A DNA stretch of 64,000 nucleotides from an uncultured Candidatus Saccharibacteria bacterium (GCA_964601305.1 CAZRMW010000001.1:34376-98375); one strand, 5' to 3'; counted from the stretch's first letter, positions 29,630 to 61,671 are shown. Translations and numbers: made by a program. The notes: a model not told the origin generated them from the letters alone.

Positions 29630-29660
29630 AAAGCCCTTGCCTTATTGGCAAAGGGTTTTT
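29629..29660. terminator. terminator hairpin AAGCCCTTGCC-ttatt-GGCAAAGGG plus T-run
   Basis: GC stem plus TTTTT immediately after the stop of 29312..29629. Confidence 0.5.
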
Positions 29661-29674
29661 ATTATACAAATACA

Positions 29675-31750
29675 ATGAAATATTATATTTTTACATTTGG
29701 GTGTGGCGCCAACCACGCTGACAGTGAAAGAATCGCCAGAAAATTGAAAGCCCTCGGCCACAAAAAAGCAGTTTCTTCCAAAGAGGCTAGTTTAATAGTG
29801 CTCAATGCCTGCTCTGTTAGAAAATCTGCTATAGATAGAGTTTATGGCAAAGTAAAAAATCTAAAAAACAAGCAAATTATACTAGCAGGCTGTCTCCTTG
29901 ATTCAGATAGAAAAAAATTAGAAAAAAAAGTAAAAGCTATTTGGCATCCAGACGAATATTTCGATTTATCCCCCATAAACGAAACTTCTTTTCGTGCGCT
30001 TATACCAATCACAAAAGGTTGTAATAATTTTTGTTCGTACTGTGCTGTGCCCTACACACGAGGAAAAGAAAAATCTCGCCCAGCAAAAGACATAATCAAT
30101 GAAATTAAAGAATTAATAAAAAATAATTATAAAGAAATATGGCTGTTGGGACAAAATGTAAATAGCTATAAATCTGGGAAAACAAATTTTCCAAAACTTC
30201 TTCAGAAAATAAACAAGATTGAAGGTAATTTTTGGATAAAATTTACTTCCCCTCACCCAAAGGATTTCTCCAACGAATTAATACAAACTATAAAAAAATG
30301 TGAAAAGGTTACCAACTACATAAACCTGCCTGTTCAATCTGGGGACAATGAAATTTTGAAGAAAATGAATCGAAAATATACACGCCAGCACTACATTAAG
30401 CTTGTAAACAAAATTAAAAAAGCTATTCCAGATGTAGCAATTTCTACAGATACTATCGTAGGATTCCCTGGAGAAACACGCACTCAATTTAAAAACACTC
30501 TAGATTTGTACAAAAAAATTAAATTCGATATGGCTTTTATTTCACAATACTCCCCTCGCACAGGCACCGTATCCGCACGAACTATGAAAGACAACATAAA
30601 ACACATAAAAAAAGAAAAGCGCGACAAAGAGCTTACAAAAGTATTAGCCAAATATTCGCTCGAGAAAAATAAAAAATTAGTTGGGCAAACTATAAAAGTT
30701 TTAATTGACTCACAAAAAGACACTAATTTTTTTGGCCGCACAGAAGGCAACAAAATAGTTAAAATAAATAAAACTGATTCTATAAGTATAGGAAAATTTG
30801 TAGATATAAAAATAACAAAAGCTACCTCTTGGAAGCTGGAGGGAGAAATCGCTCCTACAAAAATTATAGTAGTTTTGGGCCCCACAAGCTCTGGAAAAAG
30901 CGACTTAGCTGTAGATATAGCTCTTCAATTCCCTTCTGAAATTATTTCTGCAGATTCTAGGCAAGTTTATAAACACATACCTATCGGTACAGGGGCTATA
31001 ACCAAAAAAGAAATGAAGGGTATTTCCCATCATTTGCTAGGTTTTGTAAATCCCAAAAAAACATATACTGCAATAGATTTTAAAAAAGATGCAGAAAAAG
31101 CTATAAAAGAAATTCTAAACAAAAACAAAATACCAATAATATGTGGTGGCACAGGGTTTTATATACAAACACTTTTAAGTGGCAATAATTTACCAAAAGT
31201 AAAACCAAACTGGCCTCTTAGAAAAAAAATGGAGAAAAAAACAGCAGGCCAACTTTTTAAACAACTTCAAAAGCTCGACCCCAAACGCGCTAAAAACATA
31301 GATTCAAAAAACAAGCGGCGTTTAATTCGTGCTATCGAGATTGCTATCAAATTAACGAAGTCGGACTTCGATAGTTCACTACCGAAATCCGACTTCAATA
31401 GTTGGGATGTGCTGTATTTAGGTATAGAAAGAAAAAGTGGTAATTTAGAAAAACTTATCAGAAAAAGAATTTTGGGACTTATAAAAAGAGGGCTTTTGGC
31501 AGAAGTAAAAAATTTAAGAAAGAAAAAAGTCTCCTGGAAAAGAATAGACGAACTAGGTTTTGAGTATAAATACCCAGCTCAATATATCCGCGAAGAAATA
31601 AATAAAGAAGAAATGGTAGAAAAAATACTTACAGGAAATAATAAGTACGCAAAAAGACAGATGACTTGGTTTTTAAAATATACCCCAAAGACAATTTGGG
31701 TAAAAAATTCTAAGGAAGCTATGAAATTATCTAAAAAATTTTTAGACTAA
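29675..31750 (+). CDS. miaB-miaA: fusion protein: MiaB-like radical-SAM methylthiotransferase (MTTase-N, radical SAM, TRAM) fused to MiaA tRNA dimethylallyltransferase
   Basis: Start MKYYIFTFGCGANHADSE (MTTase N-terminus Cys), LNACSVR, AGC, CNNFCSYCAVP radical SAM, TRAM region; then IIVVLGPTSSGKSDLAVDIAL (P-loop), ISADSRQVYKHIPIGT, HHLLGF = MiaA. Single continuous 692-aa ORF. Confidence 0.8.
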   Translation: MKYYIFTFGCGANHADSERIARKLKALGHKKAVSSKEASLIVLNACSVRKSAIDRVYGKVKNLKNKQIILAGCLLDSDRKKLEKKVKAIWHPDEYFDLSPINETSFRALIPITKGCNNFCSYCAVPYTRGKEKSRPAKDIINEIKELIKNNYKEIWLLGQNVNSYKSGKTNFPKLLQKINKIEGNFWIKFTSPHPKDFSNELIQTIKKCEKVTNYINLPVQSGDNEILKKMNRKYTRQHYIKLVNKIKKAIPDVAISTDTIVGFPGETRTQFKNTLDLYKKIKFDMAFISQYSPRTGTVSARTMKDNIKHIKKEKRDKELTKVLAKYSLEKNKKLVGQTIKVLIDSQKDTNFFGRTEGNKIVKINKTDSISIGKFVDIKITKATSWKLEGEIAPTKIIVVLGPTSSGKSDLAVDIALQFPSEIISADSRQVYKHIPIGTGAITKKEMKGISHHLLGFVNPKKTYTAIDFKKDAEKAIKEILNKNKIPIICGGTGFYIQTLLSGNNLPKVKPNWPLRKKMEKKTAGQLFKQLQKLDPKRAKNIDSKNKRRLIRAIEIAIKLTKSDFDSSLPKSDFNSWDVLYLGIERKSGNLEKLIRKRILGLIKRGLLAEVKNLRKKKVSWKRIDELGFEYKYPAQYIREEINKEEMVEKILTGNNKYAKRQMTWFLKYTPKTIWVKNSKEAMKLSKKFLD

Positions 31751-42121: not shown

Positions 42122-42262
42122 ATTACCATTTTAGATAAATTATCCAAAAATCATCGACCGCATAAAATTGGATAGTTTTTAAAAACAAAAACATCATACA
42201 TCCTTGGCGATAGCACTAGATATATGATGTTTAAGATAGACAAAACAAAACAGAAAAAAGCA

Positions 42263-42308
42263 GAGCCCTCGTAAGAGGGCTCTTTTTGTTTTGTTCCGCT
42301 GGAGCGGA
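42263..42308. terminator. two GC hairpins (AGAGCCCTCgtaaGAGGGCTCT with A/T flanks; GTTCCGCTGGAGCGGAAC)
   Basis: Perfect stems immediately 3' of the GC-rich minus-strand gene. Confidence 0.5.
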
Positions 42309-42847: not shown

Positions 42848-44608
42848 TTATTTGAGCTTCTCTATCTCTTTGCTAAGATATTTCTTCATTTTTACTACAG
42901 TGCTTTTCAACCCTTTTAGAGAATTATTTATCATTTCTTTGTCTTCAGATTTAAATTTTTGTTTTTTCAAACTCTTTTCTAAATCTTCCATATCGTTTTC
43001 CATAAGTTTGCTCAGTTTTTTTATATCTCTTCCAACAATTATTTTATATGCGCTCCTTTTCTCTTTTTCAGAAACATAATACCAAGCCACAAAAGATCCA
43101 ACAGAAGAAAAAATTAAAACTAAAATAATAACTATCTCAAACCACCCGAAATCCACAACACCCAAAGAAATTATTGTTTTTGCTGTAATTTTAAAAGATA
43201 TTGGCTCTGTATTGTAGCTTACGCCACCCCTATCGTCTCTTGATGAAATCAAAAACTTATATTCTCCCCCCTGAAACGGCTCTTCTATTACAACTTCCCA
43301 ATTGCCAACCTTATTGCTCTCTGAAAAAGTAGTAAAAATTATCTGATCATCTTTTAAAATCTTTACATCCACAAACCCATTTGGAACAGCCTTTCCAGAA
43401 GCAAACAAAAACTCGCCTCCAGAAACTTTTTTTGTTATAAAATCTACTACCGGTTTTTCAAGAGGAATTATTTCAAACTTAATGTCATCTTCCACGCTGT
43501 TTCCTGCCTTATCGAAAACACGCACCACTAAATCGTGCTCCCCTGGAGATTGAGGAGGCAACAACAAAAACTCATCTGTAGATTCTACCGCCTCTTTTCC
43601 ATCAATAAAAATCAAAGCGTGAGAATAACCAGAAAGACTATCTTGTGTTTTAAACTCTATCTCGGGGACAGGATTGTCGCTAACAAACGAACTGATTTGC
43701 GTTTCAAAAGGGAGAGGTGAAGTTGTGTCTATGGCAATTTTATAATGAGTCACCTCTCCCCAACCTTTATTGTTTTTAAATTGTACATGTACATAGTGTA
43801 TTCCTTCACTCAAAACTCCTATATTTTTACCTGTAAAAAGTTCTTCTTCGGAAGTGGTAGGCTCTGACGACACTTTTGCGTTTACCTCTACTGCAACTTT
43901 TATTACATCTTCAGGAACATCCCACAAAACTATTGTATTTCCTTGGTGGTTGTACCATTTCCCATGCTCAGGATAAAAAGGAACTCTAACAACCGGAGCC
44001 TCGGGCGCATCTACTGCTTTTACAGCTACTCGTTCAACTCTTTGCGGAAGCTCTTCTTTTTCAACCTCTTGCGGAACAAAAGGGATTTCAGCTTCTATAG
44101 TTTTTGCGCCAATTTTTATTTTTGTGCCTGCCATTTCAGAAAGCACATTTGTGCCTTTTCCATCGTTTGCAGTAACCACAGATTCATCAAAAGAAATGTT
44201 TGCAACACCAGTACCAACAACCTTGAAGTTTATTCTAACAATTTGAAGTGCCCCACCAGAGACACCCTTTGCAGTGCCCCCGATAAAACTTACTCGCCCC
44301 AGCTCATTGTTTATTTCTGGTTCGTCTATCCAAAAATTAAAAACAGAACTATTTTTATCTGTACTAACAACCTCTAAAATATTGTTCGAAAAATTTACTG
44401 TAGACTGAACCGCATTTATAAAAACATCGCTTGTATCTACTTTTACATCTACAGAAAATTCCTGTCCACGCGCAAAAGTCTTCCCTTCTGGAAGCAAATA
44501 AAGAGTAGATGCATTAGCAGAAGGCGCAAACGCCAGAATAAAGAATAAAGAATAAAGAATAAAGTTGCTTAACTTTAAAATATTCATAATTCGTGATTCA
44601 TAATTCAT
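42848..44608 (-). CDS. type-I membrane-anchored surface protein with N-terminal cohesin-like domain and Ig-like middle region
   Basis: Signal peptide; GQEFSVDVKVDTSDVFINAVQSTVNFSNNILEVVS...VRINFKVVGTGVANISF resembles cohesin; C-terminal TM plus basic tail; N-terminus paralogous to 58607..59602. Confidence 0.55.
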   Translation of the reverse strand: MNYESRIMNILKLSNFILYSLFFILAFAPSANASTLYLLPEGKTFARGQEFSVDVKVDTSDVFINAVQSTVNFSNNILEVVSTDKNSSVFNFWIDEPEINNELGRVSFIGGTAKGVSGGALQIVRINFKVVGTGVANISFDESVVTANDGKGTNVLSEMAGTKIKIGAKTIEAEIPFVPQEVEKEELPQRVERVAVKAVDAPEAPVVRVPFYPEHGKWYNHQGNTIVLWDVPEDVIKVAVEVNAKVSSEPTTSEEELFTGKNIGVLSEGIHYVHVQFKNNKGWGEVTHYKIAIDTTSPLPFETQISSFVSDNPVPEIEFKTQDSLSGYSHALIFIDGKEAVESTDEFLLLPPQSPGEHDLVVRVFDKAGNSVEDDIKFEIIPLEKPVVDFITKKVSGGEFLFASGKAVPNGFVDVKILKDDQIIFTTFSESNKVGNWEVVIEEPFQGGEYKFLISSRDDRGGVSYNTEPISFKITAKTIISLGVVDFGWFEIVIILVLIFSSVGSFVAWYYVSEKEKRSAYKIIVGRDIKKLSKLMENDMEDLEKSLKKQKFKSEDKEMINNSLKGLKSTVVKMKKYLSKEIEKLK

Positions 44609-44626
44609 AATTCTTTTGTATTAAAA

Positions 44627-46099
44627 TTAAATTTTTATGTTTTTTAAAAATATACTAAAATCTATAATATCTATTTTACCATTACCGTCTAAATCTATTT
44701 CTCTTCTAAGCGATTTTTCTTTAGACCCCCATCTAAACAAAAACATACTCCAATCTACAACATTTATAGAATTGTCTTTGTTAAAATCTGCTTTAGGAAA
44801 ACTTAGAGACGACACTCTAAAAGAACGCGGAAAAGAAAAACCACTATCTTTTCCTTCTTTGTTTGTTTGACCAACACGAACTTGAAAATCCCCTGCCCCC
44901 AAATTGCTTGGATTTAAAATAAATTCATAATAACCATTATTATTAGCTTTTGTTTCTTCTTTTATTATATCACCTACCTCTATTTTTACTGCACTTCCTG
45001 CTGTGGAATACCCAAATATTTTTATATTTTTGTCTAGTGTAAAAATACCGTTACCAAAATTTATTGTTGGTGGGAAAAGGATATCTCTAGCTACTAAACT
45101 TTTTTCAGAATTAAAATCTACATTAAATGACATTGACCCAGTTTTTTGTCCCATTTTATCTATAGCCCTAATACTAAAAAAGTATCTGCCTGTAAGAAAA
45201 GCTGTGTAAGATATATTAAACTCTCCGCTACTTGATATATTGTATGTACTAAGTGGTACATTTCTATATACATCGCTAACATCATCTCTAAATAAAACCT
45301 CCACTTCGCTTCTTGGAAAAGCTTTGCCAGAAAAAAGAACTCTTGTGGGAGCCACCCCTCCACCCGTAGGAGTAGATATGCTTGGTTGCCCACCAGATCC
45401 ATTTGTGACTGTAGTAGCCTCACTTGGCACATTAGATAAACTTGAAGTGTTTGGAACTTCGTCGGATACTTTAATAGCAAAGTAATAAGTAGTATTTGCA
45501 CTAAGCCCGGAAACTGTCATACTCTCAGAGCTTCCCGCCACACTTGGTGTGGGCTCTCCTGTGACCTGTGTTGCATTATTAAAATCTGTGTCGTTTGTGA
45601 TGTTTGAGGTTGAATAACGAACATCGTAAGTTGTGGTAGTTCCCGAACCAGCGTCATCGCCTGGTGCTGTCCACGAGAGATTTATGGAAGTTTGGGTAGC
45701 CCCTAAAGCGGTTAAATTATTCACCGCCGACGGTGCTGTAGTATCAGAAGGCGGAGTTGTATATGTAAAACCACCAACTAAAGTTCCCGATTTACCATCT
45801 GATGTACGAGTATAAACAACATCCTGTGCCCCAGCTGTGCCACTAGGAGTTGTCGCTGTCATCTCTGTGCTACTTACAATAATAAGATTTGTTACTGACC
45901 CCCCACCAATAGTCAGCGTTCCTGCTGCAAAACCTGTCCCACCGATAGTTACATCGATCCCTCCCGCCGTTGAACCAGAAGTGGGAGAAATAGAATTAAC
46001 ACTTGGTGCTGGTGCAGCAAAGACACTCCCTGTACTTAAAAAATAGAGGAATAAAAAAACTACTAAAAATTTTAATGAGTGCCCACAAAAATATCTCAT
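44627..46099 (-). CDS. secreted protein with IPT/TIG, fibronectin-III-like and C-terminal dockerin-like domains
   Basis: Signal peptide; GGIDVTIGGTGF (IPT); TSINLSWTAPGDDAGSGTTTTYDVRY (FN3); DFNKDNSINVVDWSMF...DLDGNGKIDIIDFSIF (paired dockerin Ca-binding repeats). Confidence 0.6.
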   Translation of the reverse strand: MRYFCGHSLKFLVVFLFLYFLSTGSVFAAPAPSVNSISPTSGSTAGGIDVTIGGTGFAAGTLTIGGGSVTNLIIVSSTEMTATTPSGTAGAQDVVYTRTSDGKSGTLVGGFTYTTPPSDTTAPSAVNNLTALGATQTSINLSWTAPGDDAGSGTTTTYDVRYSTSNITNDTDFNNATQVTGEPTPSVAGSSESMTVSGLSANTTYYFAIKVSDEVPNTSSLSNVPSEATTVTNGSGGQPSISTPTGGGVAPTRVLFSGKAFPRSEVEVLFRDDVSDVYRNVPLSTYNISSSGEFNISYTAFLTGRYFFSIRAIDKMGQKTGSMSFNVDFNSEKSLVARDILFPPTINFGNGIFTLDKNIKIFGYSTAGSAVKIEVGDIIKEETKANNNGYYEFILNPSNLGAGDFQVRVGQTNKEGKDSGFSFPRSFRVSSLSFPKADFNKDNSINVVDWSMFLFRWGSKEKSLRREIDLDGNGKIDIIDFSIFLKNIKI

Positions 46100-46109
46100 T
46101 TAAACAAAT

Positions 46110-46601
46110 TTATTTTTTCCTTTTTTTCTTTTTTGGTTTAACTTCTTTTTTTGTCTCTTCTTCAGATTCTTTTTCTTCTGCCATTCCCTCTATTTTTTCT
46201 GGCGCTCCACTGTTGCCAGGCCTGCTTTCGTCTCCAAAAAAATCTTTTACTTTATCTACGATTTCAGACACAGCATGTTGAGATTTTACTATGTAGTCGT
46301 GTGCGCCAAGCCTCAACCCCTTTTTAATATCATCGTCACTCCCAAGCATTGTGAGAATCATCACAGGAATTTTTTTGGTATTTGGATCTTTTTTAATATC
46401 TTTAAGTACATCAAACCCGTGTAGCTCTGGCAAAATAAGATCAAGTAAAACTAAATCTGGTTTTTTAGATTGCACCAATTTCAGGCCTTTTTCACCATCA
46501 TAAGCTTGATCCACTCCATAATTAGCTTCTTTTAGCTCTTCTTTTATGACTTTTGACAACACTTTGTCGTCTTCTATTAAAACTATTTTTGTTTTCTCCA
46601 T
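46110..46601 (-). CDS. stand-alone response-regulator receiver domain with Lys-rich tail
   Basis: KIVLIEDD...LLDLILP...(phospho-acceptor D)...KIPVMILT...GAHDYIVK: CheY-like REC motifs. Confidence 0.75.
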   Translation of the reverse strand: MEKTKIVLIEDDKVLSKVIKEELKEANYGVDQAYDGEKGLKLVQSKKPDLVLLDLILPELHGFDVLKDIKKDPNTKKIPVMILTMLGSDDDIKKGLRLGAHDYIVKSQHAVSEIVDKVKDFFGDESRPGNSGAPEKIEGMAEEKESEEETKKEVKPKKKKRKK

Positions 46602-46662: not shown

Positions 46663-48603
46663 TTACGCCAAACCCTTTTCACCCCCTACTTTTTTAGATT
46701 TTAACGGAAGTTCGACAAAAAAAGTAGAACCCTTTCCTTCCTCTGATTCAAACCATATTTTACCTCCCAAAAGATTTACTGCCTGTTTTACAATATAAAG
46801 CCCCAACCCTGTACCGTCTGTTTTTACTGTTATTGCATTATCTCCCCTAATAAATTTTCCAAAAATAGTTGATTGATTTTCTTTAGGAATACCAATACCA
46901 GTATCTGCTACTTTAAAGAGGAACTTTTCCCCTTTCTGTTCCAAATATACTTTCACTTCTCCACCAGCGGGAGTATATTCTATAGCATTTGAAATTATAG
47001 ATTGAGTAATATTTCTTATAGCATTTCTATCTGCGCTTATCTCTAGGCTTTTAGGATGCTTCTCAAAAGTCATTTTTATATTCTTTTTTTCACATATTGG
47101 TGTACACTCTAAAAAATAACTCTCTAAATAACTCACCAAATCAATTTTTTCTGGATTTATAGAAATCCTCCCCTCTTCTATTCTAGAAACATTCAATAGG
47201 TCATTTACAAGCAGGGTGAGTCTGTTTGTTGAAAGACGGATGTCTTCCATATACCCCCTGTCTTTTTTGGGAAGTTTTGATTTTTTAAGCATTCTTTCTG
47301 CCACCCACTGAATACCCGTAAGAGGTGTTCTCAATTGGTGAGAGGCTACAGAAACAAACTCACTTTTCATTTTTTCTATTTCTTTTTCCTTTGTAATATC
47401 TCTTTCAATACCAACAAAAAATACAACTTCATTTTTAGTATTTAAAACAGGTGAAATACTTGCATAAGCAGTATACTCTTGGCCATTTTTTCTTTTGTTT
47501 TTTATTTCTCCTTCAAAAACTTTCTTTTTTTTCTTAACTTCATTCCACATTTTTTCATAAAACTCCTGCCCCATTAGTCCCCCCCAATTTTCCTTTGTGC
47601 CTACTTTTTTTCCTAATATTTCTTTTGAAGAAAACCCAGTAATTTTCTTTACTGCTTTGTTAGCATAGATAACTGACCCATCAATATCAGTTATTACTAT
47701 ATGATCTGAAGCATTATCAACAGCCAATTTAAACTTTATTAAATCATTAGCTAATTTCCCTGATTTTTTTCTTTCCTCGTCTACGTCCTCTAGAACATTT
47801 AAAACTGCTTTCTGTTGACCTTCCAGGTCTTTTTGTTTTTTTCTTATTTCACTTGTTTGCTCTTTGACCCTTTTGTTTATTTCACTTCTGCTTTTTTTTA
47901 TGGCAACCACTGCCTTATCAAAAGATCTAGAAAGATCTCCTATTTCATTTTTCTCTTCTGTATCAACTTTATAATCAAGATTACCTTTTTCTATAACACT
48001 AATCCCCTCTTGAAATTTTCTAATAGGTTTTAAAACAACTCTAATAACAAGCCAAACACCAACCGCTACAATCAAAAGAAAAGAAAAGATAGACAAAACA
48101 AAAACTACAACCAACATTCTCCCTAAATTACCGACTTCGTTGCTTTTATCACTGCTTAAACCAGAGGCACCTAACGCTATTTTTTGTGATAAGAGAAGTA
48201 TTTGGCTGGTTAATCTATTTTCCAATTCAATATTTAAAGTGCCTCCATTTTTATGTAAAGCGAGAATTTTTTCAAAAATAACACCCATGTCTTTGTGCTT
48301 TTTACGCAACGATCTTGTCAATTCAACTTTTTCAAAATCTTCAAAAACTTCTTTTTCTAGAAGAATTAAAATGTTTTTATGTTTAGTTTTCCATTGTTGT
48401 TCAGCCCGCTTTTCCTGATAAAGTAAAAAATCTCCAAGGACAATATCTAAATCAAAAACTTCTTTAAATATTTCATCTGCAACCCTCCCTTTCGCAACTT
48501 CTCTTATTAGTTTGTTTGTCATTAAAAAAAGTATCGCACTAATCACCAAAGTTAAAACAATTGTAATTATGGTGAAAGTTTTTAATATTTTTTTTATTGT
48601 CAT
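46663..48603 (-). CDS. sensor histidine kinase (TM, HAMP, PAS, HisKA, HATPase)
   Basis: H-box FVSVASHQLRTPLTGI; N-box/G-boxes ISNAIEYTP, DTGIGIP, GTGLGLYIVK. Confidence 0.85.
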   Translation of the reverse strand: MTIKKILKTFTIITIVLTLVISAILFLMTNKLIREVAKGRVADEIFKEVFDLDIVLGDFLLYQEKRAEQQWKTKHKNILILLEKEVFEDFEKVELTRSLRKKHKDMGVIFEKILALHKNGGTLNIELENRLTSQILLLSQKIALGASGLSSDKSNEVGNLGRMLVVVFVLSIFSFLLIVAVGVWLVIRVVLKPIRKFQEGISVIEKGNLDYKVDTEEKNEIGDLSRSFDKAVVAIKKSRSEINKRVKEQTSEIRKKQKDLEGQQKAVLNVLEDVDEERKKSGKLANDLIKFKLAVDNASDHIVITDIDGSVIYANKAVKKITGFSSKEILGKKVGTKENWGGLMGQEFYEKMWNEVKKKKKVFEGEIKNKRKNGQEYTAYASISPVLNTKNEVVFFVGIERDITKEKEIEKMKSEFVSVASHQLRTPLTGIQWVAERMLKKSKLPKKDRGYMEDIRLSTNRLTLLVNDLLNVSRIEEGRISINPEKIDLVSYLESYFLECTPICEKKNIKMTFEKHPKSLEISADRNAIRNITQSIISNAIEYTPAGGEVKVYLEQKGEKFLFKVADTGIGIPKENQSTIFGKFIRGDNAITVKTDGTGLGLYIVKQAVNLLGGKIWFESEEGKGSTFFVELPLKSKKVGGEKGLA

Positions 48604-50477: not shown

Positions 50478-51524
50478 TCAGGAAAGAAAATAATTATCAA
50501 CAGCAAATTTAAACTGCTGGACAAACAACTCTTTGAAAAATCTTAAATTATTTTGTTCATAAAACAAAATCATTGCTTTTTTATAATCTCCCTCATCTAC
50601 ACTTCTAAAAGATAAGGGGCAAATATTGTAAGCTAAAAGAATAGCATCTCCCAAAAGCCGACTTGTTCTTTTGTTCCCATCCTCAAATGGTTGTATGTAA
50701 GAAACCATTAGGATCAAAACCAATGCCTTCTCAAACGGATTTTTTGAAGAATTAATCAATTTAATTGTTTTCTCTACAACTTCTTCTATCTGATATTTGT
50801 TGTCTAACGGCCTATATCTTGTTCCAATAATACCAACTGGCAATTCTCTTATTCCTTGCTTAATACCCAAGTCTTCTACAATCAACTTTTGTATATTTTC
50901 AATTTTTCTTAAGTTTATCTTTTTAAAATCTTCCTTGTTTTCTATAATGTAGTCCAATGCTTTCTTGTGATTTAAAATCATAATGGCTTCTTCTTTCTTG
51001 TGCCCCTCAGCTTCTTTGTTTTCTTTAATTAAAATTTCTGTATCAAGCAAAGAGTAAGTGTTTCCTTCAATTTGTGAAGATTTCCAACTCAATTCAATAG
51101 ACAATCTCTCAAACTCTTTTTTCAAAATTGTGTCTGACAATTTTTTTATTCTTCCTCTATAATCATTATTTAGTTTCTCTAATTCTTCGCTTTCTTTTTT
51201 TGAAAACAAATTTTTTAGGTTTTTAAATATATCAAAATTGAAACGCCTAAAAAGAATATCTCTTTCATCTGGTGAAATATCAAAATACTTTTCTGTATCT
51301 ATATATTGCAATAATTCGTTTGTGGCACTATCAAAGTAGCGAACACTCCTTCCACGACCTTCTTTTTTTATTAAATTCTCACCAAGAAGCTCTTCTAAAT
51401 CCCTCACCACGGTAATACGCGAAACGTCATCAAGATACTCCACAATTTGTTTATTGCTTGTGCCATTATTACTCTTGATAAAATCTAGAATTTTTAATTG
51501 TCGCTCTTCTAATTGTTTCATCAT
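50478..51524 (-). CDS. Fic-family protein with N-terminal winged HTH
   Basis: Fic motif HPFEDGNKRTSRLL (HPFx[DE]GNGR); N-terminal HTH LKILDFIKSNNGTSNKQIVEYL. Confidence 0.8.
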   Translation of the reverse strand: MMKQLEERQLKILDFIKSNNGTSNKQIVEYLDDVSRITVVRDLEELLGENLIKKEGRGRSVRYFDSATNELLQYIDTEKYFDISPDERDILFRRFNFDIFKNLKNLFSKKESEELEKLNNDYRGRIKKLSDTILKKEFERLSIELSWKSSQIEGNTYSLLDTEILIKENKEAEGHKKEEAIMILNHKKALDYIIENKEDFKKINLRKIENIQKLIVEDLGIKQGIRELPVGIIGTRYRPLDNKYQIEEVVEKTIKLINSSKNPFEKALVLILMVSYIQPFEDGNKRTSRLLGDAILLAYNICPLSFRSVDEGDYKKAMILFYEQNNLRFFKELFVQQFKFAVDNYFLS

Positions 51525-51653: not shown

Positions 51654-52145
51654 TTACGTTCTTCTTTTTAAAAGCATTAAATTGGTTATTACTAATCCAG
51701 CTACGAACAAAACAACTCCAAGAAGTACGAAAAAGTATAATTTCAATTGCGCGCTTTTGCCTCCTACTACTTGAAAACTTGCAGAAACCTCCTCCATTAA
51801 GTCTTCATAGTCGCTAATTTTTACATTTATAATATGTAGCCCGCCCTTAGCTATTTCTGGAATTACAATGTAGTCCATAAAAGATGCTTGAGTTTCTATG
51901 GCTTTTAAAAATTTTGCTTGAGCAATAATTTCTCCATCTTTGGTTAGAATTTCATAATTTAATCTTAAATCTTTTCTTCGAGGATTTTCCGGATATTTAA
52001 TTTCTAATTCAAAATAAAATCTCTCACCAGCCACAACATCTGTATATTTTTCTGGCACATGCACCTGAATACTTAAAGCATGCGCAGAAGAAGCCACACC
52101 AAACAAAAACGATACCACTAAAATTGTTTTTATTATTCTACCCAT
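51654..52145 (-). CDS. secreted/membrane-anchored hypothetical protein
   Basis: Signal peptide and C-terminal TM. Confidence 0.4.
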   Translation of the reverse strand: MGRIIKTILVVSFLFGVASSAHALSIQVHVPEKYTDVVAGERFYFELEIKYPENPRRKDLRLNYEILTKDGEIIAQAKFLKAIETQASFMDYIVIPEIAKGGLHIINVKISDYEDLMEEVSASFQVVGGKSAQLKLYFFVLLGVVLFVAGLVITNLMLLKRRT

Positions 52146-52885: not shown

Positions 52886-54733
52886 TTATTTTAAAGCGTT
52901 TTTAAACCCTAAAAATACAAACACGAGGCCAACAAGGCCAGTAACAACTCCTGGCACCCAATAAACATCTAGAATGGCGCCGTGAACAAAAATATACACC
53001 CCCAAGAAAAACCACACGAGCCTATCTATAATTAAAAATATCGAACCAATTATAACAAAATTTCTAGAAGCCCGTTTTTTCAATTTAAAACCATACCCAA
53101 AAAGAACAAATAAAATTACTGTAGTTAGTAAAATAGAAATATTGTTGTAAAAAATAGTACTAATTTTTGCTTCTCCAAAAGGCATCGACAAAAAGAAATA
53201 GCTTGTTGTAAAAACTAAAGCAAATAGAAAATAATATCTTAGTTTTAAATTAGCAAGAAATTTCTTTGTTTTAGGATATTTTTTAATTTTTGTTTTTCTA
53301 ATTTTTTTATTAAAAAAGACCCCAACAAACATTCCTAAAACAGTAATGACCAAAACACCAATCAAAGAAATAATAATTTTCCCTTTTAAAAATTTCTTTA
53401 ATGGATCGTCTATCGCCTCCTTTTTTTCAATTTCTGTAATTAAGCACCAGCTTGGATCTAAAATAATTTCATGAATACCAACAACCTCGTCCCCCTTGTA
53501 ATTTAAAAATTCACCTGTTGGATCGTGTCCAATACGTTTTTTGCTTTCAGACATACCAAAACATCTTTCTGTATTTTCACTCTCAATTACTTGAATCATA
53601 ATATCAAAATTCTCCAATCTTAACGGACTTATTAACAATAAACTTTTATTAACAAGATAACTTTCTTTAGTTTCACTAAAACTGTCTTTATCTTCGGCTA
53701 CAATTTCAAAAATTTTTTTCATTTGGTTTACTATGGCAACGTAACCCAAAAATTTATCTTTGTTGTAAATAGGAGCCATAATAGAAAATTTTGGGAAAAT
53801 GTATCCATAGCTTCCAATAAAAGGGCCGTAAAAAGAAATCTCCTTACTTTTTTTGACATCAAAATAATTTTTTGAAAGTCCATGACCCAAATTAACTTCC
53901 CACCCTAAATTCTCTCCAAAAGGCCCGTGTTCATCAGTCATATAAGAAACATATCCATCTTTAGAAATTAAAAGAATGTTGTGGTAATCTTTCTTTTTAC
54001 TAAAATTTTCTAAATATTCCGATTTCTCTTTAATTTTTTTATAATCATCAACATAAGCAGTAACAGAAATACCTAATTCAAAATCATCTGCTGTTTTTAC
54101 AGAAAGAGGAATAAACTTGCCATATTTTTTTCTTACTTTTTTCGATAACTCCTTCCATCTATAAAAACCTTGATTGGCTTCTTTCGTTTTTTTTACTTCT
54201 TCTATATATCCTATAAGTTCAGGAAAATATTTTTCAATATTCACCCCAATAATAGAACTATATTTATGAAAATAAATAGCAAAGTCATTAATATCGTATA
54301 TTGCACTATATCCATCTTTACCCACTGGCTGTACAGCAATTTTTTGAAATTCACTACTCTCTTGCAAATCTTCCAAAGACATCTTTGGGTGCATTTTAAG
54401 GTAATTCTCAACTTCTTTTGTGATAATCCTCGATTTTTCTTTAACATCTTTTTCAATTATAGCTTTCTCAAAAGTTAAGTTTTTCTTCAATAATTTTTTT
54501 ACTTCGTCTGATTTCTGTAGTATTTCAAGGTCATTTTTCATTTCAGATAAATAATTTTCAATCTTTTTTGTTTTTTCTTCAGAAATTTCAAGCAACATAT
54601 TGTGTGCTTCCAAAGTCAGCCTATTCTTTTCCTCTTTATATTGAAAAAACAAAAACAAGCCCGCAACACACAGACCTATCGCAAAAAACACTGCAATATT
54701 TTTTATTTTTTTATATATGTTTCTGTCTGTCAT
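52886..54733 (-). CDS. membrane protein with large extracytoplasmic (sensor/Cache-like) domain and C-terminal 5-TM module
   Basis: N-terminal TM, about 430-aa extracellular region, then 5 hydrophobic helices. Confidence 0.45.
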   Translation of the reverse strand: MTDRNIYKKIKNIAVFFAIGLCVAGLFLFFQYKEEKNRLTLEAHNMLLEISEEKTKKIENYLSEMKNDLEILQKSDEVKKLLKKNLTFEKAIIEKDVKEKSRIITKEVENYLKMHPKMSLEDLQESSEFQKIAVQPVGKDGYSAIYDINDFAIYFHKYSSIIGVNIEKYFPELIGYIEEVKKTKEANQGFYRWKELSKKVRKKYGKFIPLSVKTADDFELGISVTAYVDDYKKIKEKSEYLENFSKKKDYHNILLISKDGYVSYMTDEHGPFGENLGWEVNLGHGLSKNYFDVKKSKEISFYGPFIGSYGYIFPKFSIMAPIYNKDKFLGYVAIVNQMKKIFEIVAEDKDSFSETKESYLVNKSLLLISPLRLENFDIMIQVIESENTERCFGMSESKKRIGHDPTGEFLNYKGDEVVGIHEIILDPSWCLITEIEKKEAIDDPLKKFLKGKIIISLIGVLVITVLGMFVGVFFNKKIRKTKIKKYPKTKKFLANLKLRYYFLFALVFTTSYFFLSMPFGEAKISTIFYNNISILLTTVILFVLFGYGFKLKKRASRNFVIIGSIFLIIDRLVWFFLGVYIFVHGAILDVYWVPGVVTGLVGLVFVFLGFKNALK

Positions 54734-55839
54734 TTATCTTTTGTCAGATCCTTCCACAAATCTTCTTGTAATTTTCTGATGTTTTCAGGTTGATCATAGT
54801 CAGAATAATACTCAAGCCGTTTCATTGTATTCTTGTCGATATTAGCAAATTCTTTATACACACTGTCTTGCTCAAGCATTCTTTTTGATTTTAAGTTAGG
54901 ACTCATATAATTATATTTGGCAGCTAATTTAGCGCCGACACCAGCATCGAGAATATAATTTATAAACATCTCTGCTGTGTATTTCGATTTCGTTCCTTTC
55001 GGAATAACCATATTATCTGCCCAAATAGCTCCGCCTTCTTTAGGAATGATATATTTAATGCCAGGATTCTTCTCAACAATCTCATGTGCATGTCCACTCA
55101 TAAAAATAGCAAGCCATATATCTTCTGAGATTATTTTTTCTTGAATATCTACAAACCCATAAAAATCCCAATTCATATCATGGAAATTAATAAAATTTTC
55201 AATAGTTTGTATGTCCCGACGTGTCATTGGAACAATTGGACTTCCAATATATTTTGATATCGGACCAAAAAAATCTTCAGGAGTTTTAAAAAATCCAATT
55301 TTATCCTCATAATCTAACTTCCACAAGACATCCCAACTATCTGTGTTTTTGGGGACATATTTTGTATTAACAAAAAGCCCTGTTGTACCAGAAAGATACG
55401 GAAAAGAATATTTGTTTTTTAAATCATAATGCTTATTTAAAAATTGAGGATCAAGATTTCCGCGGTTTGGAATATTTTTTTTGTTTAACTTTAAAAACAA
55501 ATTCTCTTTTAGCATTTTTTTTAAATACGCATCACTCAAAATAAGTAGATCGAACTTTTTTTTCGTTTCGTTTTCTTTAATTTTTTTATGCATTTCACTA
55601 GCATCATAATATTCGTACAGATTTACTTTAACGCCATATTTTTTTTCAAAACCATCCAAAATATCTTGAGAAATATAATGTTCCCAATTGTAAATATCTA
55701 GTTCGTGAGCAAGTGTTTCTTCTGTCTTTGACAACCCCAACAAGAGCCAAACCGCTACACCACACACAACAAGTACGATTATTATTAAAAATAATATTAA
55801 TTTTTTATTTTTTTTATTCATCCCATGGATATTCTTCAA
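54730..55839 (-). CDS. membrane-anchored solute-binding protein, PotD/PotF-like (polyamine-type)
   Basis: N-terminal TM anchor; overall SBP type-2 pattern (..LYEYYDASEM..FDLLILSDAY..GAIWADNMVIPKG..). Confidence 0.5.
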   Translation of the reverse strand: MKNIHGMNKKNKKLILFLIIIVLVVCGVAVWLLLGLSKTEETLAHELDIYNWEHYISQDILDGFEKKYGVKVNLYEYYDASEMHKKIKENETKKKFDLLILSDAYLKKMLKENLFLKLNKKNIPNRGNLDPQFLNKHYDLKNKYSFPYLSGTTGLFVNTKYVPKNTDSWDVLWKLDYEDKIGFFKTPEDFFGPISKYIGSPIVPMTRRDIQTIENFINFHDMNWDFYGFVDIQEKIISEDIWLAIFMSGHAHEIVEKNPGIKYIIPKEGGAIWADNMVIPKGTKSKYTAEMFINYILDAGVGAKLAAKYNYMSPNLKSKRMLEQDSVYKEFANIDKNTMKRLEYYSDYDQPENIRKLQEDLWKDLTKDK

Positions 55840-56884
55840 TCACCATTGAATTAATCAAAATAGTGCTCGAAATATCTTCCTTTTCAATGTCTAGTTTTTT
55901 TAACCTAGCTAAATTAATCATCGGTACTTTTTTGTCGGTTGGCTTAAATTTAAAACTTGATGGTCTTTTGCCCTTAATTAAAATTTCATAACCAAGCTCT
56001 GCTGCATCAGCACCCATCCCTTGGTTAGAAATCATTACTCCGCAAGTTTGCCCCGTAGTAATTACAGTCACCCAAAGACCAAGATCTGGCAAATTACTAT
56101 TTTCGGCAATCCATTTTCCAAAAATTTTATTACCAACATTGTTCCCTCTCCTATCGACAAATCTTGATAATGGTGTAAACACAAAAGCATCTGTTTTATC
56201 TTGATAATACAAGACCTTATTTTGAAAATCTTCATAAAATTCTTGTTTTTCTATTGCAATTACTTCCATACCAAAAGTTTTACTTCTCTCGCTTATTCTT
56301 TCCATTACACCATCCCACTGTTTGGTCGGCTCTGCAAAAACAACCAGTTTTTTTACATAAGGAAATAATTGCTGTAAAAGCTCTAAAGACTCATCCACAA
56401 ACTCTCTTTCTAAAACTCCTGCAACATTTTTTGCTTTGTCGTAATTATAAACCTCTGGCTCTCTATTTACCCCTGTGAAAACAACTGGAATATCCGAATT
56501 AAGATAATACGATTCTATCACATATTCTTGCGCAGTATCGTCTGTGGCAAAAATCAAATCTGGTTGCCATTTGTCTATCATTTGTTTGGCTAGTTCTGCC
56601 TGTTCTAATTTCCACTCCTCTTTTTCGTTTCTTACGGTGTCCATGTCTAGTCGCATTGTTTCAATTTCTATCCCCTCCTTTTTCCAAAATCCCAAAAAGC
56701 CTTCCAAATACCCCTCAACTACCATTGGGGGGGCAACGGAATGGTAACTGTTTAACAAAAAAATCTTAATCGGTTCCTCCCCTCTAAATTTGTATGGGCT
56801 ACGAAAAATATAGTAAGAAGAAATTAAGACAACCATCATTAAAACTACACCCCCTAAATAAATTAACTTTTTTTTATCTTTCAT
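55814..56884 (-). CDS. membrane-anchored periplasmic-binding-protein type I (ABC_sub_bind-like) protein
   Basis: N-terminal TM; IKIFLLNSYHS...DLIFATDDTA...VVFTGV pattern of sugar-binding-fold PBPs. Confidence 0.45.
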   Translation of the reverse strand: MKDKKKLIYLGGVVLMMVVLISSYYIFRSPYKFRGEEPIKIFLLNSYHSVAPPMVVEGYLEGFLGFWKKEGIEIETMRLDMDTVRNEKEEWKLEQAELAKQMIDKWQPDLIFATDDTAQEYVIESYYLNSDIPVVFTGVNREPEVYNYDKAKNVAGVLEREFVDESLELLQQLFPYVKKLVVFAEPTKQWDGVMERISERSKTFGMEVIAIEKQEFYEDFQNKVLYYQDKTDAFVFTPLSRFVDRRGNNVGNKIFGKWIAENSNLPDLGLWVTVITTGQTCGVMISNQGMGADAAELGYEILIKGKRPSSFKFKPTDKKVPMINLARLKKLDIEKEDISSTILINSMVIEEYPWDE

Positions 56885-56885
56885 A

Positions 56886-58019
56886 TTATTTACATTTTTT
56901 AGAAATTAATAAACATATCAAACCAATTATAGAAAAAATAACAAACAGACAAAATACAAAAAACAATAAAAATCTTTTCTCCAAATTACCAATGGTTTTA
57001 CTAATATAATTATCCTCAGAAACATTCACTAAAACCCAATAAAAATCTTTTTCTGGGCTTTTGCCAAAAACTTTCTCAAAACCTCTGTAAATTTCAAAAC
57101 TTCCTTCCGAAGGATGTATGTGTCTATAAGTAAATATTGAGTTTTTATCTCTCAATTGCCTTTTTTGGTAGTCAAACAATATTTTTTCAGAAATATCTGG
57201 ATAATCATCTAAAAAATTGTCGCCACTACCTGTAAGATTTCCAAACTCCTTTGACTCATCAGGGTGTGTGATATAATAACCATCTTGGTTGACTAAAAAA
57301 GTTAACTCTCCACCCCCTTGGAAAGATCTAATATCTTCTAAAAAATAATCAGCATAAACATTTGCTACCATAATCCCAGCACGCTTGTTGTTTTTATCAA
57401 AAACGGTAGTTGCATACGTTAAAATAGGAATGTAATCCACAAATTCTTGAGTGCCACGATTTTCAAGCTCGCCATCTTTTGTACTTAAATCTATTTCAGA
57501 TATAAGAACTTCTCCTTCCTCTAATTTTATAGCTTCACCAAAATAGTACTGTCCCCTTCTGTTTTGGAGTTCGTTTTTTGTAATTATTTTATATTGACCA
57601 TTTAGTTTGAGGGTAGCCGTACGACTAATCTCAACTTTAACCACCTCATCACCATACTCATCAACATAAAACAGTTGATAATATGCAGGGTTCTCTTTTA
57701 TAAATCTTAGAAGATCAGATTCTAATTCTTTTTCAAAAGATTTCTTTTCTTGAACTTTTGTTTCTCTTATCAGATTGTTCAAACTAGAAAGTCCACTCAA
57801 AAATAAAATATCGTTTGCCGCTGTTCCCGGAAAACTGTTTATTTCAACAAAAAGAGTCTCTATGCGTCGGCTAATCGTGTCTACAGCATTAGCTGTGTAG
57901 TTTTTTGAGTTTTCTTTTAAATTGAAATAGTCTCTTGCAGCCAATAAACACAAAAAAGACAAAAGAATTAGGCAAATTAAACCTGCAACAAATTTTTTAT
58001 TGAGTAATCTGGTTAGCAT
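56886..58019 (-). CDS. bitopic membrane protein with extracytoplasmic sensor-like domain
   Basis: N-terminal and C-terminal TM helices flanking about 300-aa domain. Confidence 0.4.
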   Translation of the reverse strand: MLTRLLNKKFVAGLICLILLSFLCLLAARDYFNLKENSKNYTANAVDTISRRIETLFVEINSFPGTAANDILFLSGLSSLNNLIRETKVQEKKSFEKELESDLLRFIKENPAYYQLFYVDEYGDEVVKVEISRTATLKLNGQYKIITKNELQNRRGQYYFGEAIKLEEGEVLISEIDLSTKDGELENRGTQEFVDYIPILTYATTVFDKNNKRAGIMVANVYADYFLEDIRSFQGGGELTFLVNQDGYYITHPDESKEFGNLTGSGDNFLDDYPDISEKILFDYQKRQLRDKNSIFTYRHIHPSEGSFEIYRGFEKVFGKSPEKDFYWVLVNVSEDNYISKTIGNLEKRFLLFFVFCLFVIFSIIGLICLLISKKCK

Positions 58020-58626
58020 AATTTTTTGTCTCTTTGCTTAAATAAAGATACCCTCCAACAATAGACACTAACAATATCCCCAAAACCAACCAGACATAAA
58101 CTATTTTGTTTTTTGAAATTTCAAAATCTTGCCTAAACTCATCTAAAACATCTACATTGTACAAAGTTTGTAATTCAAGAGTATATTTTCCAGACGGAAA
58201 TTTTAAGTTATTAAAATTTTTAGTAAAAACCCTCTCGGTTTCCACCACTAAATAATCTTGTTCCATATGGATTTCTTTTCCAGAACTATCCAAAATACTA
58301 AATAATAAATTCACTGGTGTTGGCTCTGTACCAAAACTTGTAAATATAACTCTGACCGACAAATCCTCGATACTATCAACTGTCTTGTCGTCAGTTTCAA
58401 AATTAATGTCAAATAAATATTTGGTTGAGTCTTTTTTTTCTAAAGCAATTTCCACACGACCTTCTTCTGTTTTACGCTTTTTTACAATTTCGATGCCCCC
58501 ATTGTCGTGTTTTATATTTGGATAAAAACCTATCACTAGCAAAATAGACACAAAAGACACTAGTAGCAATGGCAACGAAAAAACAAAAAACTTTTTTAAC
58601 ACATTCTCACTTTTTCTTCGTTCCAT
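57997..58626 (-). CDS. surface protein carrying the conserved 'LFDIN...TLYNV' module plus C-terminal TM anchor
   Basis: Module shared with 58607..59602 and 60424..61614. Confidence 0.5.
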   Translation of the reverse strand: MERRKSENVLKKFFVFSLPLLLVSFVSILLVIGFYPNIKHDNGGIEIVKKRKTEEGRVEIALEKKDSTKYLFDINFETDDKTVDSIEDLSVRVIFTSFGTEPTPVNLLFSILDSSGKEIHMEQDYLVVETERVFTKNFNNLKFPSGKYTLELQTLYNVDVLDEFRQDFEISKNKIVYVWLVLGILLVSIVGGYLYLSKETKNYANQITQ

Positions 58627-59602
58627 TGTTTCTTTTTATGTTCCAAAAGTACAAACTCGCAACGACTATAAAAATCAAAACAAGCAAAACATAGACATAC
58701 CAAGTTTCTACTATTTTCCTCTTCTCAATAATTTCAAAACTAACCTTAAACTCGTCTTCTACATTCACATTGTAAAGTGTTTTTACAACAAGCGTATATC
58801 TACCTAACGGCAAATCAAGATCCTTAAACCTTTCTATCAAAACTCCTTCGGTTTCTACCACTATTTGATCCTTTTGGCTATGAACTATTTCTCCGGTTTT
58901 ATTTACAATATTAAATGTTAAATCAACGGGAGTTGGCACTCTTCCAAAACTTATAAATATTACTCTCGAAATCAAATCTTTTATGTTAGTTATTGATACT
59001 TTGTCTATTTCAAGATTGATATCAAAAAGTTGTTCTGGTATTTCTTCTGTCTCTGTCTCTGCAGTTTCTGCTGGAGCTTCAGCCCTCACAACAGGCACTA
59101 TTGTAACATAAGTTTGTACAGATTTTTTATCATAAACATTGTTATTTTGGATATCCAAAACAAAAGTACTGCCATCTACTTCTATAATTCCTTCTCCAGT
59201 TTTTTTAGCTCTAAAAGTAGCCGTGCCAAAAGCAGTGCCAGAAGAAACGCCCCTTGGGTAGCCCCCCGTTTTTATTAAAATCCCTTCATTATTATTTATA
59301 AGATCATATCCTGGTTGTTTTAAAGAGACCCAACTATCATTCATTTTGAAAGAGTTGACTTCTAAAAGATCTGGCGGGTAATTTAACTCTATTTTTGTCG
59401 TATAGTTGTTCACTCCAGCTGGGTTTATGCCGACCATAAGCTCAAATTGCTCTCCTTCAACAACATTTATATTTACTGGACTTAAAAAAACAGAAGTATC
59501 GGCTAATACGTCTGGAATTAAGAACAAAGTATAAAGAATTAAGCAGACAACAACAAAAGACGTCCGCAAAAAAACATTCTTAATTCGTGATTCATAAATC
59601 AT
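58607..59602 (-). CDS. cohesin-like domain protein with conserved C-terminal module and TM anchor
   Basis: N-terminus MIYESRIKN paralogous to 42848..44608; cohesin-like GEQFELMVGINPAGVNNYTTKIELNYPPDLLEV; C-terminal IPEQLFDINLEID module. Confidence 0.5.
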   Translation of the reverse strand: MIYESRIKNVFLRTSFVVVCLILYTLFLIPDVLADTSVFLSPVNINVVEGEQFELMVGINPAGVNNYTTKIELNYPPDLLEVNSFKMNDSWVSLKQPGYDLINNNEGILIKTGGYPRGVSSGTAFGTATFRAKKTGEGIIEVDGSTFVLDIQNNNVYDKKSVQTYVTIVPVVRAEAPAETAETETEEIPEQLFDINLEIDKVSITNIKDLISRVIFISFGRVPTPVDLTFNIVNKTGEIVHSQKDQIVVETEGVLIERFKDLDLPLGRYTLVVKTLYNVNVEDEFKVSFEIIEKRKIVETWYVYVLLVLIFIVVASLYFWNIKRNNGTKKK

Positions 59603-61634: not shown

Positions 61635-61671
61635 CAGCCTGCCCCGTGAGAATCAAAGATTCTTTTACGGG
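61635..61671. terminator. hairpin CAGCCTGCCCCGT..ATTCTTTT..ACGGGG overlapping the stop codon of 61665..62231; homologous copy inside the CDS at 63164..63199
   Basis: CCCCGT/ACGGGG stem; same AGCCTGCCCCGT...ATTCTTCGGGG unit occurs in-frame in the 63006.. gene. Confidence 0.45.

Follow-up and report, generated by a model that had tools for sequence, protein, structure and literature searches.

A membrane-anchored cohesin protein and a dockerin protein with a variable head: a gene pair widespread in Patescibacteria that looks like a 1:1 surface tether

In Clostridium thermocellum, the anchoring proteins OlpA, OlpC and SdbA carry one cohesin per anchor and hold a dockerin protein at the cell surface. 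A dockerin is defined by two segments of about 22 residues, each composed of a 12-residue EF-hand-like calcium loop (Asp or Asn at the positions 1, 3, 5, 9 and 12) followed by a helix (PMC12484212). Outside plant cell-wall degradation, cohesins are represented by those of Archaeoglobus fulgidus (PDB 2xdh), where the cohesin-dockerin pair is functional (PMC12484212), and of Clostridium perfringens (2jh2, 2vo8 and 2w1n). Among the Saccharibacteria, SEML1_0315 of Southlakia epibionticum, an envelope protein that contains a dockerin domain, is essential (PMC10633639). The locus presented here lies in a window of 64,000 nucleotides (the whole stretch of DNA analysed) from an uncultured Candidatus Saccharibacteria bacterium (GCA_964601305.1 CAZRMW010000001.1:34376-98375). 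The positions 42848-46099 contain two open reading frames (ORFs), both confirmed on the minus strand and separated by 18 nt, which encode the proteins A (42848..44608, 586 aa) and B (44627..46099, 490 aa). A model working from the sequence alone (hereafter the original prediction) had read them as a cohesin-like anchored protein and a secreted dockerin protein of a cellulosome-style surface scaffold.

The comparison with the known systems reveals both shared and distinct characters. Like OlpA, OlpC and SdbA, A has a single cohesin on its anchor. Its type-I-like all-beta fold is that of the cellulosome anchors (3ul4, 4dh2 and 2b59 are among its structural matches) and, as in the anchoring systems of cellulosome producers, a two-repeat Ca-loop dockerin is found at the C-terminus of the partner, here B. 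By analogy, the arrangement looks like a 1:1 tether, with a logic closest to that of the single-cohesin anchoring proteins. However, the anchor of A consists of a transmembrane (TM) helix and a conserved cytoplasmic hairpin instead of the S-layer homology (SLH) repeats of OlpA, OlpC and SdbA. Contrary to the cellulosome anchors, the B-type cargo contains neither enzyme nor CBM3, no multi-cohesin scaffoldin is present, the genes belong to a kinase/regulator cassette, and the host is a non-cellulolytic member of the candidate phyla radiation (CPR). The immunoglobulin (Ig)-like module directly before the dockerin of B recalls the X-module-dockerin dyads, a resemblance only.

The A. fulgidus and C. 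perfringens cohesins 2xdh, 2jh2, 2vo8 and 2w1n are found among the top fold matches of A, at ranks 5, 19, 31 and 37, respectively. These non-cellulosomal pairs are isolated cases in single organisms or toxin/glycosidase complexes, whereas the gene pair B-A (B upstream of A) forms a conserved two-gene module shared by hundreds of species, provides its own membrane stalk and is accompanied by two-component genes. The Southlakia protein SEML1_0315 can be likened to B by its gene context and its domains: it is Ig-rich and lies directly downstream of the receiver-only regulator SEML1_0317 and the PAS histidine kinase SEML1_0318, in the same order as in the window. However, no A-like gene follows it in the gene table, and no cohesin partner is reported (PMC10633639). 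No published description of the B-A gene pair was found in the literature on cohesins and dockerins in CPR/Patescibacteria, the coverage of which was incomplete. What looks new is a conserved, membrane-anchored and probably 1:1 cohesin-dockerin tether, with a variable non-enzymatic head, linked to a two-component system and widespread in Patescibacteria.

The cohesin of A and the dockerin of B

Protein A begins with a hydrophobic leader ending in ANA/ST. The full-length AlphaFold2 (AF2) model (predicted local distance difference test, pLDDT, 85.5) displays successively a leader helix (residues 3-26), a cohesin (34-166), a disordered linker (168-183), three beta-sandwich domains (approximately 190-476), a helix that begins as a TM segment (489-549) and a second helix (554-585), the two helices forming a cytoplasmic hairpin. 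From this order of elements, A is modelled as a type-I membrane protein whose Ig-like stalk carries the cohesin at its distal tip. The only significant Pfam match of A is Big_13 (7.5e-10, residues 405-474). Against the PDB, the full-length model recovered generic tandem-Ig arrays only, the best being a tandem-Ig S-layer protein (TM-score 0.15), and nothing matched the cytoplasmic hairpin.

The cohesin-like peptide of the original prediction, VFINAVQSTVNFSNNILEVVS, is located at residues 62-82 of A. Used as a single-sequence query against Pfam, NCBIfam and the PDB, A gave no cohesin match, and the assignment therefore needed family profiles and a structure model. A word-index search with the cohesin domain alone returned three proteins only. 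The exhaustive HMMER search with a five-sequence profile recovered 10,252 cluster representatives at E<=0.001, of which 4,814 reach E<=1e-10. An alignment of 40 members of the domain, used as a profile, matched about 20 cohesins of the PDB (3l8q, 5e-6; 5g5d, 4e-5; 1g1k, 4e-4), and 23 of these 40 relatives individually match the Pfam family Cohesin (PF00963), the best with 8.9e-13. The AF2 model obtained from the same alignment (mean pLDDT 96.1) contains 11 strands and no helix. When this model was compared with the PDB using Foldseek, the top 50 matches were all cohesins, with E-values down to 3.7e-9 and TM-scores of 0.57-0.76. They span the types I, II and III, many were solved in complex with dockerins, and they share 10-22% identity with the domain of A. 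By its modelled fold, the N-terminal domain of A is a cohesin. The signal peptide, cohesin-like segment and C-terminal TM anchor attributed to A were all recovered, the leader and the TM segment also as helices of the AF2 model and the cohesin fold by AF2, Foldseek and the family profile.

Concerning protein B, a signal peptide is present and Pfam detects TIG (residues 32-106), fibronectin type III (fn3; 124-211) and Dockerin_1 (437-485) domains. The isolated tail reaches 27.4 bits against Dockerin_1 (PF00404, E 4e-6), above the cut-off of 22.9 bits. The two peptides proposed as a duplicated Ca-binding repeat, DFNKDNSINVVDW and DLDGNGKIDIIDF, correspond to residues 438-450 and 469-481. They belong to two loop-helix repeats, DFNKDNSINVVD-WSMFLFRW and DLDGNGKIDIID-FSIFLKNI, which give the tail of B the two segments of Ca-loop and helix that define a dockerin. 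In an alignment of 28 tails, every sequence has Asp at positions 1 and 12 of the two loops, and Asn or Asp is almost constant at positions 3 and 5. All 28 tails match PF00404 (best 2e-13), independently of the profiles built from the family. The best PDB matches of the dockerin-tail profile are also dockerins (2y3n_B and 2vn6_B, 1e-7). The secreted IPT/FN3 protein with a duplicated Ca-binding dockerin is therefore upheld. The structure search (cohesins) and the tail alignment (Asp/Asn pattern present) were the two points on which the original prediction could have failed, and both came out in its favour. A dual binding mode is known for type-I dockerins (see also PMC12484212). In B, the two dockerin helices are nearly symmetric (D[WF]S[MI]FL in both) and, by analogy, would allow such a mode.

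The same evidence has to be weighed against another role for these modules. The cohesin-like fold of A could be a ligand-binding, glycan-binding or self-associating tip and no dockerin receptor, and the dockerin of B a Ca-stabilised module directed to another target such as a glycan or an S-layer. The identity of 10-22% to solved cohesins agrees with this possibility, as does the failure of A to reach the Pfam Cohesin model; moreover, the strongest conserved motif of the A family, A[NS]DG[KR]GTN[VI]L, is not mapped to the canonical dockerin-binding face, and the Southlakia authors offer the speculation that host glycans are the targets of envelope proteins with a dockerin (PMC10633639). However, all the top 50 structural matches are cohesins, many of them solved with dockerins, and the strict co-occurrence with a dockerin-ending neighbour described below is what a receptor and its ligand would be expected to display. 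We consider this alternative quite unlikely.

Conservation of the gene pair and its cassette

A word-index search with the full-length A recovered at least 245 proteins. The best 120 of them contain 484-612 aa (mostly 550-612) and display 39-58% identity with A over 75-100% of the query (mostly 93-100%). Most relatives are annotated "hypothetical" and a few are named "cohesin domain-containing protein". All of the closest ones carry the label Patescibacteria/CPR (among them Pacebacteria, Nealsonbacteria and Magasanikbacteria); a few records are titled Gammaproteobacteria or KSB1, these being unverified labels given by the submitters of metagenome-assembled genomes. Pattern scans detected relatives of A in at least 329 GTDB species-representative genomes and at least 488 metagenome stretches. 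Most members contain a single cohesin and measure about 580 aa, and the conservation covers the whole length of the protein. In 27 full-length relatives, the hairpin residues Y521, R527, D528, K573 and Y577 show little or no variation. Neither this highly conserved full-length family of Patescibacteria, nor its conserved cytoplasmic tail, nor the kinase-regulator-B-A cassette had been noticed in the original prediction.

A census of gene order was realized on 165 fetched loci, of which 107 non-redundant ones could be tested for an upstream dockerin, i.e. an ORF on the same strand ending at most 500 nt before the A-like start and carrying a dockerin at most 15 residues from its C-terminus. The detection used profiles built from the family, the independent check being the match of the 28 of 28 tails to Pfam. 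Such an ORF was found in 99 of the 107 loci (93%). In four of the eight exceptions (the metagenome loci L158, L160, L161 and L162), the dockerin ORF is followed by a separate cohesin ORF of about 300 aa and then by the remainder of A, which may be explained by a split of the gene or by an additional cohesin protein.

Using phmmer, 68 of 72 ORFs located upstream of A-like genes match B. The conserved part of the B-like proteins is the C-terminal Ig-like pair (the equivalent region of the relatives matches Big_13 or Big_6) together with the dockerin; the B-like proteins of loci L001 and L003 share the conserved C-terminal sequence of B, including the same dockerin. The heads vary and contain 1-6 fn3, 1-7 TIG, BNR-like, CBM96, Kelch, InlB-B-repeat-like or Big domains, for a protein length comprised between 191 (truncated) and 2331 aa. 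No catalytic Pfam domain was detected in B, in E (the second dockerin protein of the window) or in the 14 B-like relatives scanned.

The gene pair is part of a larger cassette. In loci L001-L005, for which a precomputed Pfam annotation was available, we observe a kinase (dCache/PAS/HisKA/HATPase), a receiver-only regulator, a B-like protein (annotated fn3, with the dockerin recorded in some cases), an A-like protein and often a second regulator; just upstream, L001 and L005 also encode a hemerythrin and a dCache-HAMP protein. Long flanks were available for 39 loci: in 36 of them the B-like gene is immediately preceded by a response regulator, and in 33 a kinase comes immediately before this regulator. 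The median length of these regulators is 131 aa, and they are therefore receiver only. The window carries the same order: kinase (46663..48603), regulator (46110..46601), B and A, with intergenic gaps of 61, 10 and 18 nt. The kinase has the HisKA and HATPase core and the regulator a receiver with acidic pocket, phospho-acceptor Asp, Thr and Lys, as in two-component systems; the pocket was read directly as DD at positions 11-12, D in LVLLDL, T in ILTML and K in YIVK. On the minus strand, no terminator-like site was found by scanning from 42848 to 48603, and the first one beyond the cassette is a strong hairpin at 42262..42283. The promoter scan did not exceed chance (33 found versus 28.7±5.7 expected) and no promoter is claimed. 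The presence of the kinase and regulator beside the B-A pair, with the conserved cytoplasmic hairpin of A, suggests a previously undescribed sensory link.

Other architectures were observed in the wider family. P0002 (221 aa, JGI metagenome) consists of an A-type cohesin, 58% identical to that of A, and a dockerin that begins about 10 residues after it; this protein could self-polymerise head-to-tail or act as an adaptor. The cohesin profile also detects P0004 (2059 aa), P0006 and P0008, with 8-14 tandem cohesin-like repeats, P0004 being extremely acidic with a haloarchaeon-like composition. True multi-cohesin scaffoldins therefore exist in the wider family outside the cellulolytic clostridia.

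The proposed tether and a second cohesin-dockerin set

In the mechanism that we propose, A and B would be exported by Sec. A would stay in the cytoplasmic membrane by its single TM helix, projecting three Ig-like domains and, on a flexible linker, the cohesin at the tip. The dockerin of B would bind this cohesin in a Ca2+-dependent manner, as in the characterised type-I pairs (PMC12484212), and the variable head of B (here TIG and fn3) would thereby be held at the outer end of the stalk. This head, devoid of enzymes, may serve as a binding or adhesion module toward a partner cell or a polymer. The kinase, the regulator, B and A would be co-transcribed, and the assembly would be controlled by, or report to, the two-component system. 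The domain composition and the synteny of A and B are practically certain. That the two proteins bind each other as a cohesin-dockerin tether is fairly likely, and attachment to a host is a function that we propose with less confidence than the binding itself. The gene pair is shared by hundreds of related species and therefore probably represents a conserved means of fixing a variable binding protein on the surface of the cell.

Several results weigh against this tether. A itself does not match PF00963 at E<=1, either as whole protein or as isolated domain, so that the proposed search with Cohesin and Dockerin_1 models succeeded for the tail of B and for the 23 of 40 relatives of A and failed for A. 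In the whole B, Dockerin_1 reaches 22.3 bits, i.e. 0.6 under the cut-off of 22.9 bits. Covariation was computed as mutual information with average product correction (MI-APC) on 96 non-redundant pairs, a low depth confounded by subfamily structure: the top z of the cohesin-dockerin block is 5.4, and the control blocks give 3.2 (tail-dockerin), 6.3 (cohesin-middle), 6.1 (middle-dockerin) and 6.4 (third Ig-like domain-tail). When all the ORFs of the window were scanned with the family profiles, exactly three cohesins (A, C and D) and two dockerins (B and E) were found, and the choice of partner is therefore not fixed by adjacency alone. Finally, no DNA-binding or output domain was detected in the window regulator (46110..46601), of which only the receiver part matches models; simple transcriptional control of the operon is therefore not explained.

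Some of these results agree with a different wiring, in which the modules are real and B and A are not cognate, the cohesins of A, C and D and the dockerins of B, E and others encoded elsewhere in the genome forming a promiscuous or differently connected network and the adjacency of the genes reflecting no more than the co-regulation of envelope proteins. The three cohesins for two dockerins and the lack of a specific covariation signal between the A cohesin and the B dockerin in the 96 pairs are in line with such a network, and the natural single-chain cohesin-dockerin protein P0002 shows that other wirings occur. However, the dockerin-cohesin order is kept in 93% of the 107 loci, from divergent genomes (30-58% identity) in which the surroundings vary, and the dockerin with its Ig-like pair is precisely the conserved part of the otherwise variable B. 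The order is repeated by the genes E and D of the window although the dockerin of E is only 29% identical to that of B. A non-cognate pair is thus unlikely, and we retain the tether between B and A as the likelier reading.

The second set is composed of E, D and C (Table 1). E matches Dockerin_1 (2.1e-10, 41 bits) and the family dockerin profile (1.8e-18), in agreement with the second dockerin protein announced at 61665..62231. Its gene immediately precedes that of D in the same orientation, in the dockerin-cohesin order again, and C is located further downstream. The N-terminal domain of A is homologous by BLASTP to D (6e-16) and to C (3e-5). D also matches Pfam PG_binding_1 (1.3e-6) and the cohesin profile (3.6e-36), the latter value being obtained with D in the seed alignment of the profile. 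C reaches 22.9 bits against Pfam Cohesin (1.1e-4), just under the cut-off of 24.1 bits, and matches the C-terminal half of D (8e-38). Both proteins end in a TM helix, and the two further cohesin-like anchored proteins (60424..61614 and 58607..59602) are thus recovered. The cohesins of D and A share 29% identity. This low value and that of the dockerins of E and B are compatible, at the sequence level, with orthogonal pairs, and the E-D pair with the lone cohesin anchor C suggests several orthogonal tethers per cell.

The cellulosome was rejected as a description of this locus. A, C and D have one cohesin each and no multi-cohesin scaffoldin is present; the dockerin proteins B, E and the 14 relatives carry no enzyme; and no SLH or LPXTG/sortase anchor was found, the anchor being a C-terminal TM helix. 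With single cohesins, non-enzymatic dockerin proteins and TM anchors, the system is therefore not a cellulosome: of the cellulosome-style surface scaffold first proposed, the idea of a cohesin-dockerin assembly stands, its gene order being kept in most of the loci, and the cellulosome style does not.

The proteins could also be related to larger structures of the envelope. The Pam pili (PamA/B/C/D/E/T/R) are CPR-specific appendages with Sec-exported Ig-fold components and accessories anchored by a C-terminal TM segment (bioRxiv 10.64898/2026.03.03.709456). Contrary to the proposed tether, their assembly relies on donor-strand exchange, and cohesins and dockerins are absent from the paper (bioRxiv 10.64898/2026.03.03.709456). 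A word-index search with E returned only E itself. Residues 20-92 of E match the NCBIfam model PamT (NF058579, positions 5-77 of 241) with 38.8 bits for a cut-off of 240, a weak and partial match, and no Pam-family match was found in A, B or the neighbouring ORFs scanned. A and B might then be structural subunits of an S-layer-like lattice or of a filament or pilus base, a reading in line with the tandem-Ig S-layer protein found as best PDB match of the full-length A (at a low TM-score of 0.15), with the partial PamT match of E, and with the importance of CPR pili for host contact (bioRxiv 10.64898/2026.03.03.709456). However, the PamT match is far below the cut-off, is restricted to residues 20-92 and was obtained with E instead of A or B; no other Pam family was found among the neighbouring ORFs scanned; and, unlike a lattice subunit, B has a head whose length and domain types change from species to species (191-2331 aa for the protein). 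Such subunits are very unlikely.

A further proposal extends the tether to signalling. A link through protein-protein contacts is possible because the regulator has no DNA-binding domain and the hairpin of A is conserved. A would then be a transmembrane signalling adhesin, in which the engagement of the B head is relayed through the TM helix to the hairpin and from there to the receiver-only regulators and the kinase. We regard this as improbable; if true, A and B would constitute an integrin-like module for contact sensing or inside-out activation, specific to Patescibacteria and possibly essential for episymbiosis.

Other genes of the window and meaning for the Patescibacteria

Table 1. Coordinates of the cassette genes, of the domains of A and B and of the second cohesin-dockerin set in the 64,000-nt window
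Feature	Coordinates	Strand	Evidence
Sensor histidine kinase (TM, HAMP/PAS, HisKA, HATPase), first cassette gene	46663..48603	-	NCBIfam kinase-core matches, PnpS/WalK/PhoR-like, 2.8e-70
Receiver-only response regulator, 163 aa, Lys/Glu-rich tail, ends 10 nt before B	46110..46601	-	Receiver match, residues 4-122
Protein B, 490 aa, secreted: variable head, conserved Ig-like pair, C-terminal dockerin	44627..46099	-	ORF, Pfam, synteny
B residues 32-106, IPT/TIG domain (variable head)	45782..46006	-	Pfam PF01833, E 4.2e-10
B residues 124-211, fibronectin type III (variable head)	45467..45730	-	Pfam PF00041, E 1.1e-11; PDB chitinase A1 fn3, 1.9e-4
B residues ~248-430, two beta-rich (Ig-like) domains directly before the dockerin	44810..45358	-	Conservation among B-like proteins; relatives match Big_13/Big_6
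B residues 434-490, dockerin, two Ca-binding loop + helix repeats (D438-D449, D469-D480)	44630..44800	-	Pfam Dockerin_1 on isolated tail
Protein A, 586 aa, modelled type-I membrane protein: distal cohesin, Ig-like stalk, TM helix, cytoplasmic hairpin	42848..44608	-	ORF; identical database protein P0152; full-length AF2
A residues 34-172, cohesin-fold beta-sandwich (model), membrane-distal end	44093..44509	-	AF2, Foldseek, family profile
A residues ~185-480, three beta-sandwich (Ig-like) stalk domains after disordered linker 168-183	43169..44056	-	AF2; Pfam Big_13
A residues 489-512, single transmembrane helix WFEIVIILVLIFSSVGSFVAWYYV	43073..43144	-	Hydrophobic run read directly; AF2 helix from 489
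A residues 513-586, conserved cytoplasmic helical hairpin (motifs AY..I..RD..K, KMKKYL)	42851..43072	-	AF2; conservation
Protein E, 188 aa: signal peptide, Ser/Gly-rich segment, Gly/Ala linker, dockerin residues 136-188 (61668..61826)	61665..62231	-	Pfam Dockerin_1, family profile
Protein D, 396 aa: signal peptide, cohesin-like ~26-165 (61120..61539), PG_binding_1, small beta domain, C-terminal TM	60424..61614	-	BLASTP to A; Pfam
Protein C, 331 aa: signal peptide, cohesin-like ~37-169 (59096..59494), small beta domain, C-terminal TM	58607..59602	-	Pfam Cohesin; BLASTP

Around the second set, the TM helix of both C and D is preceded by a C-terminal beta domain of about 110 aa, with 51% identity between the two proteins. 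By eye only, a similar module was recognized in F (57997..58626, weak Pfam match DUF5625) and possibly in 51654..52145, and these beta-TM modules look like a small paralogous family of membrane-proximal modules. The ORFs 59615..60094 and 62218..62997 encode paralogous small membrane proteins, each just upstream of a cohesin or dockerin gene, which share the segment ...LPNEEPNLATV...PFF.G.I.GDKVLIY...YSPERDI.VNVGPV; the longer paralogue contains a LytR_C domain.

The ORF 50478..51524 (348 aa) displays the Fic-type motif QPFEDGNKRTSR, read from the translation, just upstream of the PAS, solute-binding protein and kinase genes of the cassette. The region 52886..58019 contains ORFs resembling membrane and solute-binding proteins, including PotD-like (54730..55839) and TrpX-like (55814..56884) sequences, without adjacent ABC permease or ATPase genes; the solute-binding-like ORFs may be sensor modules rather than transporters.

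The window has a G+C content of about 33% and includes the housekeeping genes of topoisomerase I, ClpB, HtrA and a MiaB-MiaA fusion; given also the CPR labels of the closest relatives of A, it most likely derives from the chromosome of a member of the Patescibacteria. The fusion (29645..31750, 701 aa) joins a MiaB-type methylthiotransferase (UPF0004, Radical_SAM, TRAM) with MiaA (isopentenyl pyrophosphate transferase) and so unites in one protein two consecutive steps of the modification of A37 in tRNA. The ORF 3043..6444 (1133 aa) combines a zinc phospholipase-C-like region (weak match), a lamin tail domain and right-handed beta-helix repeats; its product is a candidate secreted lytic or adhesive factor. 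An 813-aa TraG/VirD4-like type IV coupling protein (TrwB_AAD_bind, TraG-D_C) is encoded at 10586..13027, on otherwise chromosomal-looking DNA.

Concerning the biology of the Patescibacteria, the B-A pair is a candidate answer to the question of how most of them, outside the few cultured Saccharibacteria, hold partner cells or surfaces, and the variable head of B is the natural candidate for the determinant of specificity. The large family of divergent and possibly orthogonal cohesin-dockerin pairs may also serve the engineering of protein assemblies. In Southlakia, the one genetically tractable CPR bacterium, the dockerin protein found in the same kinase-regulator context, a possible counterpart of B, is essential (PMC10633639), which hints that the module matters for growth on a host.

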